Positions 11,318 through 17,737 of a stretch of 64,000 bases of DNA are shown here, piece by piece. Origin of the DNA: an uncultured Elusimicrobia bacterium (GTDB taxonomy: Bacteria > Elusimicrobiota > Elusimicrobia > Elusimicrobiales > UBA9959); the NCBI GenBank assembly GCA_903867985.1, contig CAIPTO010000029.1:65-64064 (forward strand), given 5' to 3'. The translations under genes were made by a program, and so were the position numbers. Every line of letters begins with the position of its first letter. The stretch's first letter is position 1. Below the pieces are notes generated by a model. That model searched no databases and was not told the DNA's origin. It saw nothing but the letters and a program-made list of their open reading frames with translations.

Positions 11318-12484
11318 ATGAACAGACCATTACCTAAAGTGAAGCTTGCCTACGCCCCCGCCGGGCCTAACGCCTTCAGGAGGATGATAGGCTCCGTAGA
11401 GGGCGCTTCCGCCGGCGAGATCGTCGCCGTTTATAATAAGAACGGTCAGCCCTACGGCGTGGGACTTTATAATCCCCGCAGCCAGATCGCGCTGCGCATC
11501 TTTACCAGGGAAAACCCCGACACTTTCGACCTCACGACTTTTATAAAAAGACAGGTGGGCCGCGCCGTGGAGTTCCGGCACAAAGTTCTAAAGCTGGATA
11601 AAACCACCAACGCCTGCCGCCTTGTCCATGACTACGGCGACGGTCTGCCCGGGTTGGTCGTGGATATGTACGGCGACAATATCGTGCTTGAATTCTATTC
11701 TTTCGCCATGTACCGGCTGGCTTCTTTTCTTGAGGCCGCTTTCCGGGAGCATTTTCCAAAAGCTGTTTTCCACCACCGCGCCAGCTCTTACACGGAAACG
11801 ATGGAGGGGTTTACGCTCAAACCTCAAACCGGTCCGGGCAAAAAAGTCCGCGTTACCGAGAACGGCGTGATGTTCGAGGTGGATCTGGCCGGCGGCCATA
11901 AGACGGGCTTTTTCTGCGACCAGCGCGATAACCGGCTTTACGCGTCCTCGCTGGCGGAAGGCCGCAGCGTTCTGGATATCTGCTCGTATACCGGCGGATT
12001 TGGCATCTACGCCATGAAACTGGGAGGAGCGAAGGACGTAACCTGCGTGGAACTGGATGCCGAGGCCGTGGAACTTTCAAAGCGCAACGCTAATATTAAC
12101 GGAGTCAGGATAGACGCCGTCTGCTCCGACGCTTTTCCCTACATGCGCCAGATGTTCCAGAACAGCAAGAAATATGACATGGTCATTCTGGACCCCTACA
12201 AACTCGTGGCTTCGCGGGAAGACCGTGAATACGGGATTTTTAAATACAGGGATTTCAACCGCCTTGCGCTCTCTCTGGTAGCTGAGGGGGGGATATTTGT
12301 GACCTGCTCATGCAGCGGCATGGTCTCGATGGACGAATTTTCCTTTATCGTGCGCGGCGCTGCCACCAACGCGGGGCGGCGGGCGCATATCTTCAGAAAG
12401 TCAGGCGCCGGCGCCGATCATCCTGTTTCTTCCGACTACCCCGAAGGTGAATATCTTAAAGCCGTCTGGGCCCGGGTGTATTAG
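11318..12484 (+). CDS. Class I SAM-dependent rRNA methyltransferase (RlmI/YwbD-like, PUA N-terminus)
   Basis: The architecture and motifs fit (LDICSYTGGFG SAM site, ILDPY), and the protein is about 390 aa. Confidence 0.7.
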   Translation: MNRPLPKVKLAYAPAGPNAFRRMIGSVEGASAGEIVAVYNKNGQPYGVGLYNPRSQIALRIFTRENPDTFDLTTFIKRQVGRAVEFRHKVLKLDKTTNACRLVHDYGDGLPGLVVDMYGDNIVLEFYSFAMYRLASFLEAAFREHFPKAVFHHRASSYTETMEGFTLKPQTGPGKKVRVTENGVMFEVDLAGGHKTGFFCDQRDNRLYASSLAEGRSVLDICSYTGGFGIYAMKLGGAKDVTCVELDAEAVELSKRNANINGVRIDAVCSDAFPYMRQMFQNSKKYDMVILDPYKLVASREDREYGIFKYRDFNRLALSLVAEGGIFVTCSCSGMVSMDEFSFIVRGAATNAGRRAHIFRKSGAGADHPVSSDYPEGEYLKAVWARVY

Positions 12485-12526
12485 GGCACGGCTCTCCAAG
12501 AAAACAATAAATGGATGGCGGGTAGC

Positions 12527-12655
12527 CAAGTCGCGGGGTCCTGCCAGCCATGGGACCCATCGGGCCTGCGACCGGCCCGGCGACTTCGCGCCGGTTCCTT
12601 CTCGACCCGATCCAACCCATGGCTGTCACCCCTTATTACCCCGCACAAATTTACA
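12527..12655 (+). repeat. Structured repeat, copy A (core 12545-12625)
   Basis: Copy A is near-identical to 13583-13760 apart from a 46-nt indel. The outer stem is CAGCCATGGG/CCCATGGCTG and the inner stems are ATCGGGCC/GACCCGAT and CCGGCG/CGCCGG. Confidence 0.8.
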
Positions 12656-12702
12656 ATCAGCTAAAGTTTCTTGGGATAGGCCGGATATTAGGGTGAAGAG
12701 TA

Positions 12703-13512
12703 TTAGGGTTTATAGTACTTCATCGCTTCTGGCATCCAGCCTTCAATATCCTTTATTCTGGTCTCGTGGCCGGGGTGGGTGGAAAGATATTTGGCAAGAG
12801 GAGAATCGGGGGATTTGGTGGCGGCTTCCATACGTTTCCAGAAATCCAGAGCGGCGTGCGGATCATAACCGGCTTTGGCCATAAGTATCAGGCCTATGTG
12901 ATCCGCCTCTGACTCGTGCGAGCGGCTGAAAGGGAGCATAACTCCCACGTTCATTCCCACACCGTAGGCTTTAGAGAAGGCGCCCTGCACTTCAGGCGTT
13001 TTGTTGGAAAGCGCCACGCTCAATATTTTGCTCCCGATCCCGGCGGCCATTCCCTGGCTCATTCTTTCGGAGCCATGCCGGGCCAGCGCGTGGGCTATTT
13101 CATGGCCCATAACTACGGCCAAACCGGCTTCGTCTTTGGCCACGGGGAGCAGCGCGGTGTAAACAGCCACTTTCCCTCCGGGAAGGCAGAAAGCGTTTAT
13201 TTGCTTTTCATCCTCTATCAGATTAAATTCCCATTTGAACTGGGGAGGCGCGTCCGATACTTTGGCCAGACGGGCACCCACCCTTCTGACCAGCGCGGTC
13301 TTTTCGGCGTCGGCGGACAGTTTTGAACTTTTAAGCACCGCCGCGTAAGATTCGTCGCCCATCTTTACCTCTTCCGATTCGGAGACCAGGAGCATATGCT
13401 TGCGCCCGGTGTATGGTACGCTGGAACAGCCCCACAGCATAAGCGCAGCCGCAAAGTAGAATATAATTTCGATTCTTGTTATCATAAGTTCATCCGGTTT
13501 TTTATTATACAT
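12703..13512 (-). CDS. M48 family metallopeptidase lipoprotein (LoiP/YcaL-like)
   Basis: The zinc motif HEIAHALARH is present, with a lipobox-like LWGC. An alternative start lies at 13485. Confidence 0.85.
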   Translation of the reverse strand: MYNKKPDELMITRIEIIFYFAAALMLWGCSSVPYTGRKHMLLVSESEEVKMGDESYAAVLKSSKLSADAEKTALVRRVGARLAKVSDAPPQFKWEFNLIEDEKQINAFCLPGGKVAVYTALLPVAKDEAGLAVVMGHEIAHALARHGSERMSQGMAAGIGSKILSVALSNKTPEVQGAFSKAYGVGMNVGVMLPFSRSHESEADHIGLILMAKAGYDPHAALDFWKRMEAATKSPDSPLAKYLSTHPGHETRIKDIEGWMPEAMKYYKP

Positions 13513-13582
13513 TTAGATGTTCCGCTAATCAATCCGCATGGGTGGGCGGTAACGGAAAGAATTCTGTGCAATTTCCCGGTGT

Positions 13583-13760
13583 AGGGTTCGCGGGTCCGGC
13601 CAGGCATGGGACCCATCGGGCCTGCGGCCGGCCCGGCGACTGACCTATGGGCGTGCCGCAACAGGGCCTATGGCCAACAGGCGGCCTTCGCGCCGGTTCC
13701 TTCTCGGCCCGATCTAACCCATGGCTGTCACCCGCTCCACTTACACCGCCAAGAATGTAT
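13583..13760 (+). repeat. Structured repeat, copy B (core 13601-13727, with a 46-nt insertion at 13641-13686)
   Basis: Copy B is a direct repeat of copy A. The insertion sits exactly in the apical loop of the CCGGCG/CGCCGG stem. Confidence 0.8.
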
Positions 13761-13967
13761 CCTTCCAAATCACATTGGCCGGGTCCTTTTCCTTTATTCG
13801 GAGCGGTGAAAATGCTAAAATATGTTATAGCACTATAGCATCGCCGAAGCAGTCCGCCCTGCCAGCTTCCTAGCGCATGTTTCCCGGATAGTATTTATCC
13901 CCAAGGCTGTAAAAAATATGCGGGCCAAAGTATATTGTCGCGGCATCATGTCGCGGAATGTTTCACT

Positions 13968-15785
13968 ATGATAACCATCAAGAATATATATAAGTCATTT
14001 TCTTCACAATCCCTGTTCGAGGGGGCGTCTCTACAGATAAACGAAGGGGAGCGTTTCGCGCTGGTCGGGCCCAACGGTTCCGGGAAGTCCACGCTTTTTA
14101 AGATGATGCTTCGCGAAGAAGAGGCGGACGACGGGGAAATACAGTTCAAGAAGAACGTCGTAGTGGGTTATTTGCCGCAGGAGAACGCCCCAACTACGGA
14201 ACGCACGGTAGTGGATGAAACTCTGGACGGCGCGGAGGACTTTGACGGTCGCAAGGGCGCCGAAGCCAAGGCTGTTCTGATGGGACTCGGTTTCAAAGTT
14301 TCCGATTTCGGCAGGCATGTTAACACGCTTTCCGGCGGATGGGCTATGCGCGTGGCAATGGCCAGGCTTCTGGTGAAAAAACCGGATCTGCTGCTCCTGG
14401 ACGAGCCTACAAATCATCTGGACCTTGACGCTCTATTGTGGCTGCAGGATTATCTGGCGGCTTACCAGGGAGCGGTTTTCGTCATTTCCCATGACCGTTC
14501 ATTTATCAATACCGTCTGCAACGCCATTATCTCCGTTCAGGATAAAACACTTCGCGCCTATTACGGGGATTACGAGCATTTTCTCAATCAGCGCCAGTCG
14601 GAGAAAGACAAGATACTCTCACAATGGAAGCAGCAGCAGGACGATATCGCCCAGATGAAGGACTTCATCTTCCGCAACAGGGCGCGCGTTTCAACCGCGT
14701 CCCGTGTGCAGAGCATGATCAAGCGGCTTGACAAGCTTGAGCTGGTGCAGGTACCGGAAGACACCAAAACGGTCAAGATACGCTTTCCGCAGCCCGGCCG
14801 GACCGGAACAAAAGTTCTGGAGCTGAAGGACATAAGCAAAATTTACAATGTCCCCGGCCACGAACCCATACGGGTATATGAAAATTTCAGTTTTGAGCTT
14901 TACCGCGGACAGAAAATGGCTTTTGTCGGTCATAACGGCGCCGGTAAATCAACGCTGCTGAAGATGCTGGCTGGCGTGATAGAGCCGGATTCCGGAGAGC
15001 GCATCCCCGGCCTGAACGTAAAGACCGGCTATTTTTCTCAGCATCGGGAAGGCATACTCGAGCCGCGGCACACCGTTCTGCAGGAAGCCATGGATAACGA
15101 CAGGATGAACCCCGAGCTTACAGTGAGGACCGTGCTCGGAACCTTCCTGTTCCCGGGCGATAATGTTTACAAAAAAACGGCTGTGCTCAGCGGCGGAGAA
15201 AAAAGCCGGCTGATGCTGGTGAAACTGCTGCTGGACCCGCCGAACGTTATATTGATGGACGAGCCCACCACGCACCTCGATATGCCCAGCGTGGACGCGC
15301 TTATCGGAGCGCTGAAAGAATTTGAGGGCACGCTTTGCTTTATCAGCCACGATTTATATTTCATAAACGCCCTGGCCGACTCCGTGGTGCACGTTGAAAA
15401 AGGAAAGACCACCGTTTATCCAGGCAACTACGATTATTTTCGTCACCGTCAGATGACTATGCAGGCGGAATTGGCGGCGGCCGCCCCTTCAGGCGAGAGG
15501 GCTAAGCCTTCGGAAGCACGCGCTGACACGGCGGCCTGGGAAGAGAAGAAGCGTCAGGAGGCGGAGGCCCGCAAGCGTTCACGCCGGGGCGATACGCTTA
15601 AAAAAGATATAGCCTATTCCCGGAAAACCATTGAGACGCTGGCCGCAAAGATGTCCTCGCCTGAAATTTATTCGGATTATCAGCAGGTTAAAGAACTGGG
15701 GGATAAGATACACGCCCTTGAAGCCAAGGTCGCCGCGGCCCTGGAAGAGCTGAAGACGCTGGCTGAAAGTTGCCATCAGCCATAA
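13968..15785 (+). CDS. ABC-F family ATPase (Uup/EttA-like)
   Basis: It has two ABC cassettes (GPNGSGKST, GHNGAGKST; LSGGW..., LSGGEKSRL), no TM domain and a charged C-terminal coiled coil. I chose the ATG at 13968 over the TTG at 13935. Confidence 0.9.
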   Translation: MITIKNIYKSFSSQSLFEGASLQINEGERFALVGPNGSGKSTLFKMMLREEEADDGEIQFKKNVVVGYLPQENAPTTERTVVDETLDGAEDFDGRKGAEAKAVLMGLGFKVSDFGRHVNTLSGGWAMRVAMARLLVKKPDLLLLDEPTNHLDLDALLWLQDYLAAYQGAVFVISHDRSFINTVCNAIISVQDKTLRAYYGDYEHFLNQRQSEKDKILSQWKQQQDDIAQMKDFIFRNRARVSTASRVQSMIKRLDKLELVQVPEDTKTVKIRFPQPGRTGTKVLELKDISKIYNVPGHEPIRVYENFSFELYRGQKMAFVGHNGAGKSTLLKMLAGVIEPDSGERIPGLNVKTGYFSQHREGILEPRHTVLQEAMDNDRMNPELTVRTVLGTFLFPGDNVYKKTAVLSGGEKSRLMLVKLLLDPPNVILMDEPTTHLDMPSVDALIGALKEFEGTLCFISHDLYFINALADSVVHVEKGKTTVYPGNYDYFRHRQMTMQAELAAAAPSGERAKPSEARADTAAWEEKKRQEAEARKRSRRGDTLKKDIAYSRKTIETLAAKMSSPEIYSDYQQVKELGDKIHALEAKVAAALEELKTLAESCHQP

Positions 15786-15898: not shown

Positions 15899-17737
15899 AT
15901 GCAACAAGATAACGCAAAGCGCAGGCAGGACCTGCGGAACATCGCCATCATCGCCCACGTCGACCACGGCAAAACGACAATGCTGGACGCGATGCTCAAG
16001 CAGACAGGCGCTTTCAAGGACAAGAGCGGCGAGTCGCGCGAGTGTATAATGGATTCCAACGATTTGGAACGCGAGCGCGGCATCACCATCCTTTCAAAAA
16101 ACACCGCGGTCAAATATAAAGATACGGCTATCCACATAGTGGATACCCCCGGCCACGCCGACTTTGGCAGTGAAGTTGAGCGCGTGCTGCGCATGGTGGA
16201 CGGCGTCCTGCTTCTTGTGGACGCGCTGGACGGGCCAATGCCCCAGACCCGCTTCGTGCTCAAGAAAGCCCTGGCTCTTGGCATCAGACCCATCGTAGTA
16301 GTAAACAAGGTTGACCGTCCCAATTGCGATCCGCACGCAACGCTGGATAAGGTCTTTTCGCTTTTTATGGAACTGGGCGCCAGCGATTACCAGCTGGATT
16401 TCCCTACCGTTTATGCCGTTGGCCGGGACGGCTGGGCCTCCAAGGACTATAAGATCAAGACCAATGACCTCTCTTATCTCTTTGAGACCATTATAAAGTA
16501 TGTGCCCGGCCCGCTGGACAAGGATTCCGAGCCCCTGCGGATGCTGGTGACCATGCTGGACTACAGCTCTTACACCGGGCGCATAGGTATCGGACGGATC
16601 TTCCAGGGCACAGTTTCCACAGGGGCTATGATATCCCTTGCTTCGCCTATATCTAAGCCGGTCACACGCAAGGTCGTGCAGCTCATGGGGTTTAAGGGGC
16701 TTACGCGTGTGCCCGTGCAGACGGCGCGTTCGGGAGATATCGTGGCAATGGCCGGTCTCGAGGGAATAGAGGTCGGAGACACGGTTTCAAGCGCAGAGAA
16801 CCCGGGCGTTCTGCCGGGGCTTGAGATAGAACTGCCGACTCTTGCCATGGAATTTTACGCCAACGACGGGCCTTTTTCCGGCCGGGACGGAAAATTCGTG
16901 ACCATCACCCAGCTCCGCGAGAGGCTTTACCGCGAGCAGCAGATAAATGTGGGCCTTAAAGTGGAAGATATATCCGGTCAGGCCGGCTTTAAGGTTTCAG
17001 GCCGCGGTGAACTGCATCTTTCCATACTTATTGAAACCATGCGCCGGGAAGGTTATGAACTTTGCGTTTCCAAGATGGCTGTCATTACGCATCAGGAGAA
17101 TGGCGTAACCGTGGAGCCGGTGGAATACCTGGTCGCGGACGCCCCCACGGAGTTTCAGGGAGCCACGATGGAAGCGCTGGGCCGCAGAGGCGCCCAGATG
17201 AAAGACATGAAGGTTTGTGACGACGGGCGCGTACGCTTTGAATATGTCGTTTCTTCAAGAGCGCTTATCGGTTTTAAGTCGGAGTTTATGACATTGACCA
17301 AGGGTTCCGGTCTGATGCATCATAACTTTCACGGTTTCATGCCCGAGGGCGGGTTCCAGCCCCCGAAACGTAACGGGGTGTTCATCACCAAAGAGTCTGG
17401 CAAGACCGCCGGTTACGCGCTTAACGGACTTCAGGATCACGGCATAATGTTCGTGAGTCCAAATCAGGATGTCTACTCCGGCCAGGTTGTGGGTGAACAT
17501 TGCCGTTCCAACGATCTTGTGGTGAATCCCTGTAAGGAAAAGAAGCAGACTAATATGCGGTCTTCCACTTCTGATATGTCCATAACCCTTACGCCTCCGC
17601 TCAATATGAGCCTTGAGCAGGCTATTGAGTATGTGGAAGAGGATGAGTTCGTGGAAGTGACTCCTAAATCACTGCGCCTGCGCAAAAAAGTGCTGGATCA
17701 TTCATTACGCAAAAGAGGCGAGAAGGAATACGTCTAG
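15899..17737 (+). CDS. typA: Translational GTPase TypA/BipA
   Basis: G-domain motifs AHVDHGKTT, DTPGH and NKVD are present. The protein is 612 aa and has a strong SD (AAGGAG). Confidence 0.95.
   Translation: MQQDNAKRRQDLRNIAIIAHVDHGKTTMLDAMLKQTGAFKDKSGESRECIMDSNDLERERGITILSKNTAVKYKDTAIHIVDTPGHADFGSEVERVLRMVDGVLLLVDALDGPMPQTRFVLKKALALGIRPIVVVNKVDRPNCDPHATLDKVFSLFMELGASDYQLDFPTVYAVGRDGWASKDYKIKTNDLSYLFETIIKYVPGPLDKDSEPLRMLVTMLDYSSYTGRIGIGRIFQGTVSTGAMISLASPISKPVTRKVVQLMGFKGLTRVPVQTARSGDIVAMAGLEGIEVGDTVSSAENPGVLPGLEIELPTLAMEFYANDGPFSGRDGKFVTITQLRERLYREQQINVGLKVEDISGQAGFKVSGRGELHLSILIETMRREGYELCVSKMAVITHQENGVTVEPVEYLVADAPTEFQGATMEALGRRGAQMKDMKVCDDGRVRFEYVVSSRALIGFKSEFMTLTKGSGLMHHNFHGFMPEGGFQPPKRNGVFITKESGKTAGYALNGLQDHGIMFVSPNQDVYSGQVVGEHCRSNDLVVNPCKEKKQTNMRSSTSDMSITLTPPLNMSLEQAIEYVEEDEFVEVTPKSLRLRKKVLDHSLRKRGEKEYV

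Follow-up and report, generated by a model that had tools for sequence, protein, structure and literature searches.

Introduction

Insertion sequences (ISs) of the IS256 family are about 1.3–1.5 kb long, end in inverted repeats of 24–41 bp and are bounded by duplications of 8–9 bp (ISfinder values). To our knowledge, a subterminal hairpin has not been described as a feature of this family. Here we analyse two hairpin repeats, copy A and copy B, which lie on either side of an M48 metallopeptidase gene in a 64-kb stretch of DNA (hereafter called the window; 52.5% GC) from an uncultured Elusimicrobia bacterium (contig CAIPTO010000029.1). Both repeats are very probably non-autonomous derivatives of IS256-family ISs, which have a Mutator-type DDE transposase and populate Elusimicrobia genomes. 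[quoted passage not shown]

The short copies resemble IS256-family ISs and IS-derived MITEs in that they are non-coding and multi-copy, retain terminal repeats (a single one in copy B) along with a relic of the transposase and, in individual cases, are flanked by 8–9-bp duplications. The difference lies in the GC-rich hairpin, of ~110 nt. REP/REPIN sequences, mobilized by RAYT proteins, are also many-copy GC-rich extragenic hairpins and IS110-family insertion targets; REPs are targeted by some IS110/IS1111 elements. However, the elements described here are longer and are found inside a DDE-type IS with target duplications, which REPINs lack. The ERIC/IRU elements of Enterobacteria, on which Wilson and Sharp reportedly worked in 2006, are intergenic imperfect palindromes of ~130 nt that likewise fold over their full length, are conserved across species and vary in size through insertions at fixed internal sites. 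They share no sequence similarity with the present family, which differs in its IS256-type parentage, its 8–9-bp duplications and its host phylum. ERIC/IRU effects on mRNA stability depend on orientation (PMC10969869). Correia elements (NEMIS, Neisseria) and QMITE2 (Coxiella) are comparable in being MITEs of 100–200 bp with terminal inverted repeats and short duplications, but their termini and target are different, and in our family it is the internal hairpin rather than the terminal inverted repeat that is most conserved. Correia and QMITE2 elements are often located in 3' untranslated regions (UTRs), and stable hairpins form in their transcripts (PMC10969869). The elements here are ~70% GC, whereas MITEs of prokaryotes are as a rule rich in AT (PMC10969869). 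A literature search found no paper describing such repeats in Elusimicrobia.

Results

Two copies of one hairpin

A repeat search of the window aligns two pairs of segments in the same orientation, 12536–12585 with 13592–13641 (94% over 50 nt) and 12562–12631 with 13664–13733. BLAST of copy A against copy B gives two matches, of 55 nt (92.7% identity) and 48 nt (95.8%). Copies A and B are the only sites in the 64 kb that match 19- and 20-nt probes (0.01–0.02 matches expected by chance), and a maximum-sensitivity search with a profile of 71 family members found no third copy in the window. By direct count the repeat core is ~70% GC, well above the figure for the window as a whole.

The original prediction for this DNA had described two copies in the same orientation with nested stems and a 46-nt insertion in the apical loop of copy B. 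All of this is borne out: the repeat search and BLAST place the copies where they were said to be, every one of the nested stems is present in the predicted fold (z = -4.0 for copy A on either strand), and pairwise alignment puts the insertion in the apical loop, between GGCGA and CTTCGCGCC. Translation also confirms that the open reading frames (ORFs) 12447–12884 and 13606–13809 share the peptide THGCHP merely by reading through the repeat. Copies A (199 nt) and B (229 nt) are non-coding and lie within the size range of MITEs, which stay below ~300 bp; their only ORFs are such spurious read-throughs.

The elements are longer than the proposed extent of about 80–130 nt: similarity between copies continues well past the core first described when family copies are aligned with their flanks (Table 1 gives the boundaries). 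The 10-bp outer stem had been offered as a possible terminal inverted repeat. In fact CAGCCATGGG/CCCATGGCTG is an internal stem, with a G-G mismatch in copy B (CAGGCATGGG in place of CCCATGGCTG), and the real termini lie 45–60 nt outside the core. The outer flanks of the two copies are unlike each other: copy A belongs to subfamily III and copy B to subfamily II. They are therefore not a simple duplicated pair.

Copy B is a remnant of an IS256-family element

Intact ISs with the same inverted repeat as copy B and with the hairpin are present at two other loci, L122 and L143. The L122 element, on a metagenome contig, is complete (1364–2797, 1434 bp), has 28-bp inverted repeats (GGTAACGTCAAGACTTCTGTGTAATTTC and GGTAATGTACGATAGTCTGTGTAATTTC; 21/28 positions match) and is flanked by a 9-bp target duplication, CCGATCGTC. 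It encodes a 395-aa Mutator-family transposase (Transposase_mut, PF00872, E = 1.2e-86, 349/379 profile positions). In its Mutator-type DDE transposase, length, inverted repeats and duplication, it has the traits of the IS256 family. The GC-rich hairpin (~110 nt) separates the inverted repeat that copy B shares from the stop codon of the transposase gene, on the opposite strand.

The 5' sequence of copy B is the terminal inverted repeat of this IS. At its other end are the last transposase codons, and homology to the intact IS ceases at 13776. The boundaries of copy B were set by comparison of 13 subfamily-II copies; the others are cut at differing points on the side opposite the inverted repeat. 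Subfamilies I and III carry related relics at the same place (for example NWKDGGGV* and FKYGGG*), and so all three subfamilies derive from related ISs.

The closest relative, L090 (identical with L180; M48 87% identical), has the inverted repeat and hairpin at the position of copy B without the 46-nt insertion, and the 30 nt past its M48 stop are unlike copy A. This suggests that copy B is probably older than copy A and that the loop insertion is recent. The insertion contains a stretch, GCCGCAAC...GGCC, that is weakly similar to a tandem unit found elsewhere in the family: L063:1474-1634 (reverse strand), L045 and L146 have one to three ~24-nt tandem repeats of GGGATGGCCGCAACGGCCAGGTC just 5' of the core.

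Copy A is a complete MITE

Both ends of copy A pair in DNA and RNA folds, and the whole 199 nt forms one long hairpin with terminal inverted repeats of ~19 bp. The 5' terminus CACGGCTGTCCCAAGAAAAC (CACGGCTCTCCAAGAAAAC in full) recurs in at least 20 other copies in a terminus-pattern search. Copy A is bounded by the 8-bp direct repeat TATTAGGG, a candidate target-site duplication. The left TATTAGGG includes the TAG stop of the upstream RlmI-like gene, and a third TATTAGGG at 12701–12708, 15 nt beyond the right one, overlaps the M48 stop codon; this arrangement fits an insertion at a point where the two convergent genes abutted. The suggestion of a MITE-like element thus stands for copy A, with both terminal inverted repeats and a candidate 8-bp duplication, though not with the termini first reported, and it does not stand for copy B, which is a one-ended remnant.

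Directly 3' of copy A (12686–12715) we also observed a 15-bp tandem repeat, TATTAGGGTGAAGAG / TATTAGGGTTTATAG, which brings the number of TATTAGGG occurrences to three. It could be the footprint of an earlier event or could result from slippage, and we have no confident explanation for it.

The M48 gene is resident

Relatives keep the gene order RlmI, M48, ABC-F, TypA without either repeat. In L055/L056, with coding regions of 76–84% nucleotide identity, the RlmI-M48 spacer is 12 nt compared with 218 nt in the window. In L053/L054 (M48 81% amino-acid identity) the M48-ABC-F spacer is 200 nt compared with 482 nt, and in a third relative (80%) the two spacers measure 84 and 137 nt. All these relatives keep a block at ~13793–13822, which lies upstream of ABC-F and beyond copy B. 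The same gene order without the repeats means that M48 is ancestral at this position and was not brought by the repeats; where the repeats are absent, M48 is still in place.

The kept block, TTTATTCGGAGCGGTGAAAATGCTAAAATAT (13793–13822), persists in L053 and L055 despite ~80% overall divergence and is probably the promoter or leader of ABC-F. The 81% relative has a further gene (L053:1546-2553; 335 aa, no Pfam match) between M48 and a 3'-end remnant of the RlmI-like gene, indicating that the RlmI-M48 spacer is variable across several lineages.

Homologues of M48 carry Elusimicrobia annotations, and near-identical contigs in several metagenomes have both repeats at 100% identity. For the M48 gene itself, the alternative start at 13512 would give a 269-aa reading; an exact protein look-up found the 260-aa product on record and no record of the 269-aa reading. 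A consensus scan places a promoter-like site for M48 just 16 nt from the end of copy B. The sole Rfam matches in the window are two minus-strand tRNA genes, at 1687–1757 and 2642–2713.

Table 1. Features of the M48 locus, in window coordinates
Feature	Position	Strand	Basis
RlmI-like S-adenosylmethionine (SAM) methyltransferase gene	11318-12484	+	ORF list, Pfam search
Left TATTAGGG beside copy A, 8-bp direct repeat and candidate target-site duplication	12479-12486		sequence, flank-repeat search
Copy A, 199-nt MITE, subfamily III	12487-12685	+	folds, recurrent terminus, empty orthologous site
Left terminal inverted repeat of copy A, CACGGCTCTCCAAGAAAAC	12487-12505	+	fold, terminus-pattern search
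Hairpin core of copy A, conserved	12534-12633	+	repeats, folds, covariation
Right terminal inverted repeat of copy A, GTTTCTTGGGATAGGCCGGA	12666-12685	+	reverse-strand match of terminus pattern
Right TATTAGGG, candidate target-site duplication	12686-12693		repeat and flank-repeat searches
M48 metallopeptidase gene	12703-13485	-	260 aa from ATG 13485; Pfam PF01435, E = 1e-39
Promoter-like site for M48 (TTGATT, 17-nt spacer, TATAAT)	13504-13532	-	consensus scan only
Copy B, remnant of one IS256-family IS end, subfamily II	13548-13776	+	alignment to intact L122 IS
IS terminal inverted repeat of copy B, GGTAACGGAAAGAATTCTGTGCAATTTCC	13548-13576	+	23/29 positions equal to L122 IS inverted repeat
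46-nt apical-loop insertion of copy B	13641-13686	+	pairwise alignment; lineage-specific
Relic of transposase gene, last 11 codons and stop	13741-13776	-	NVIWKDTFLAV* vs NVIWKDKPLAM* in intact IS
ABC-F ATPase gene	13935-15785	+	ORF list, Pfam search
TypA/BipA gene	15899-17737	+	ORF list, Pfam search

A dispersed family

Scanning one genome per species for an exact 18-mer gave 45 loci, comprising 7 true copies and 38 chance 18-mers in GC-rich genomes. Over ~100 nt the true copies share 87–97% identity with copy A, and every one belongs to one of three Elusimicrobiota metagenome-assembled genomes (MAGs), two of which have three copy-bearing contigs each. The same 18-mer gave only 3 chance matches in a scan of viral contigs, in collagen-like or other coding repeats. 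Scanning metagenomes with an apical 21-mer yielded at least 120 loci; among the matches listed are several contigs with two or three copies and many that break off within the repeat. The many dispersed copies expected of a MITE are thus present, as is a related autonomous IS.

We extracted 79 distinct complete copies for analysis, and used 71 sequences in the covariation, strand and flank-repeat tests. Measured between arm anchors, the copies fall into length classes of 77 nt (standard), 75, 102 (+25), 123 (copy B), 134 (+57) and 166 nt (+89), with insertions at a handful of fixed sites (apical loop, 3' internal loop, 5' arm). The family divides into three or more subfamilies, alike in the core and different in the outer 40–70 nt. 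Direct repeats of 8–9 bp flank copy A and the copies in L077, L104, L146 and L160; the L077 copy (subfamily II) is bounded by the 9-bp repeat CCCGGTAAG.

The genes beside the copies are unrelated to one another. Our neighbour set, a crude selection, consisted of 135 ORFs that lie no more than 1.5 kb from a copy and reach 180 aa or more, leaving aside seven longer than ~800 aa. These gave 178 Pfam families, with no recurrent partner gene beyond TPR proteins, and clustering of nearest neighbours found no recurrent partner gene either. Two of the ORFs are transposases. RAYT (Y1 transposase) was not among the top families of this set, the host genomes not having been searched in full. In the same crude ORF picks, copies fall about equally often into each of the four orientation classes with respect to their flanking genes. 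Many copies begin 45–70 nt past the stop codon of a co-oriented gene.

Several further arrangements were seen among the family loci. In 20 of the 79 copies (for example L057, L065, L097, L108 and L175) a second conserved motif stands 45–105 nt downstream of the hairpin, preceded by AT-rich sequence: CCCGCCC, ~20 nt, ACCC(G/A)CCC and then GGTCGCNGCCARCCTTAT. This pattern has no match in the window. Direct hairpin units bracket a single XRE-type helix-turn-helix gene at L086:5261-6345 and a BrnT/BrnA-like toxin-antitoxin pair at L108:5594-6677. These units are 250–298 nt long, consist of hairpin plus downstream motif and are 83–92% identical, so that accessory genes elsewhere show the same arrangement, a small gene between two copies. 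At L110:4300-4800 (reverse strand), IS ends of the same subfamily retain the outer stem around an unrelated 185-nt GC-rich hairpin, and at L088:12140-12330 an IS end of the same subfamily has lost the hairpin interior by deletion between short CCAGGGG homologies.

The hairpin is also interrupted by other elements. An IS110-family element (356-aa DEDD transposase, PF01548 and PF02371) is present at L129:6517-7850 and again in L073, L083 and L112. Its insertion point in the 3' arm is identical in each case, with junctions between ...GYCA and TATCTGAAAG... at one end and between ...AACAT and CACCCC at the other. The four IS110-bearing copies differ in flanks and core variants; this shared insertion point in unlike copies marks the hairpin as a specific IS110-family target.

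The hairpin is under constraint

The stems covary. In the consensus structure 84.4% of cells pair, against 35–48% with slid partners, and 0 of 500 shuffles reach the observed level of covariation. Double changes convert CAGCC/GGCTG to CAGGC/GCCTG, CAGAC/GTCTG or CAGGT/ACCTG, and ATCGGG/CCCGAT to ATTGGG/CCCAAT. Internal-loop tetranucleotides turn complementary in some copies (TCGG/CCGA, GCGG/CCGC, GCCA/TGGC), and in some variants the sub-apical region is a perfect helix (GAAAGGGG/CCCCTTTC, CTGCGGGG/CCCCGCAG). Moreover, when two intact IS copies are compared, the hairpin is 98.2% identical and the inverted repeat 96.6%, whereas the transposase gene is only 83.8% identical. One MAG, whose orthologues share 76–84% identity with the genes of the window, has a copy that matches the core of copy A at 94%.

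The strong covariation, together with the higher conservation of the hairpin than of the transposase, indicates that the hairpin is under constraint. The proposal of selection on the fold, which had been argued from one loop insertion, is upheld by the covariation and by several different insertions that sit in loops. Covariation in a palindromic mobile element can, however, also come from arm-to-arm correction or gene conversion, and is therefore no proof of RNA function.

Two measures bear on which strand is folded. The transposase-sense strand, which is the minus strand of the window and the sense strand of M48, has the more stable minimum free energy in 66/71 copies. By contrast, G·U outnumbers A·C in the plus-strand consensus structure (262 to 128), chiefly within outer helices that align poorly. 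Since the two measures disagree, the strand evidence is weak and the energy result is a weak indication only.

Rfam searches of the repeats gave no match at the gathering score; raising the E limit to 10 brought up only mir-2320, by chance, at 19 bits where the cut-off is 90. We also considered the attC core as a candidate. The palindrome of an attC site begins with R'' (RYYYAAC) and closes with R' (GTTRRRY), and such sites stand in arrays beside intI. As read from the sequence, the hairpin has AAGTTCGGGG on its 5' side and CCAACTAT on its 3' side, which is the reverse of the attC arrangement, and the purine and pyrimidine positions do not fit, no search for intI having been made.

Discussion

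How the two repeats may have arisen

We propose that hairpin-bearing ISs, on internal deletion, would yield short elements in which an inverted repeat, a few terminal codons and the hairpin persist. In copy A both termini would have been kept or regained, and a transposase acting in trans presumably moved it to the point where the convergent RlmI-like and M48 stop codons met, with duplication of 8 bp. Copy B would have formed by deletion of an IS inserted upstream of the M48 promoter, with a later gain of 46 nt in the apical loop. Copies A and B would then be independent insertions, of different subfamilies, into the spacers around a resident M48 gene.

A number of observations weigh against this account. 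At copy B, a second inverted repeat and a target duplication were looked for and neither was found; this is why we describe it as a one-ended IS remnant, and it may never have been a MITE. Among the family loci examined there is no autonomous IS with the termini of copy A, so that kinship with a transposase is in this case assumed. The L143 IS copy has no target duplication. Across the family, flanking 8-mers were observed in 18/71 sequences against a control mean of 15.9, a control that is confounded by shared subfamily flanks; the statistic is not above control and the evidence for duplication rests on individual cases. Identical core variants, such as the 25-nt insertion, occur with all three terminus types, which requires either gene conversion between copies or a core that moves independently. 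The hairpin is missing from a distantly related IS256-like IS in L086, implying that it is an acquired module. Finally, the hairpin lacks a U-tract and so is not a canonical intrinsic terminator.

Other explanations

These mixtures of core variants and termini, together with L110, L088 and the hairpin-free IS of L086, leave room for readings in which the hairpin is an exchangeable module. The most inclusive of these would make it a functional cis-acting RNA or DNA module that an IS256-type lineage needs or exploits, exchanged between IS and MITE lineages, serving as a landing pad for IS110-family elements and, as direct pairs, bracketing and perhaps mobilizing small accessory modules, for instance a toxin-antitoxin pair or an XRE regulator. 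We put this forward tentatively and regard it as rather unlikely; were it true, the module might act, for example, in control of transposase mRNA or in assembly of the transposition complex.

A narrower version holds that the core itself is a selfish or functional module, exchanged independently, that has colonized the ends of several IS and MITE lineages, for example as a cis element needed for transposition or as a regulatory RNA of the transposase. It would account for a core that is better conserved than the transposase gene, and than housekeeping genes between host genomes, for the compensatory changes in several stems, for the wholly different interior within the L110 outer stem and for the hairpin-free IS256-like element. 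However, the core by itself showed neither termini nor a target duplication, all bounded cases have the duplication outside IS-type termini, and with dozens of copies per genome gene conversion would likewise homogenize the core. We think this version distinctly unlikely.

The original prediction also offered a pair of paralogous small RNAs or cis-regulatory RNAs, here acting on M48 or its neighbours. The stable fold, covarying stems and insertion-tolerant loops would suit such a role, as would the many copies that follow closely on the stop codon of a co-oriented gene. As the primary nature of the repeats we nevertheless consider it highly improbable: no Rfam family matches even at permissive E values, the copies adjoin unrelated genes in all four orientation classes, orthologous M48 loci lack both copies, and the hairpin is part of an IS with a target duplication, its copies bearing IS termini and transposase relics. 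The last proposal, recombination sites (attC-like or of another recombinase) that delimit a mobile one-gene cassette, recalls the bracketed genes of L086 and L108 but is refuted at this locus by synteny, as M48 stays in place in repeat-free relatives. Against it also stand the different subfamilies of A and B, the motifs RYYYAAC...GTTRRRY, which as read from the sequence are not in the required arrangement, and the dispersal of the copies, which do not form arrays; we hold it barely credible.

Meaning of the hairpin

On derivation from IS256-family ISs, our preferred explanation, we infer, with less confidence than the routes proposed above for the two copies, that the hairpin is kept because it is useful to the element, most likely as a stabilizing or terminating 3' stem-loop of the transposase mRNA. 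It might instead shield the element from outside transcription. Copy A would place the hairpin, in the same sense, in the M48 3' UTR and would provide a strong 3' stem-loop for both convergent genes. Copy B would insulate the M48 promoter from upstream transcription.

For annotators this means that the region consists of mobile-DNA debris, that the ORFs called over the repeats are spurious, and that M48 is simply a resident gene. For assembly, the family breaks Elusimicrobia metagenome assemblies, as the many contigs that end inside the repeat indicate, and knowledge of it is useful for binning and finishing. We know of no structured-nucleic-acid component in the IS256 family of DDE transposons; if the hairpin is a required cis element, it would add one.

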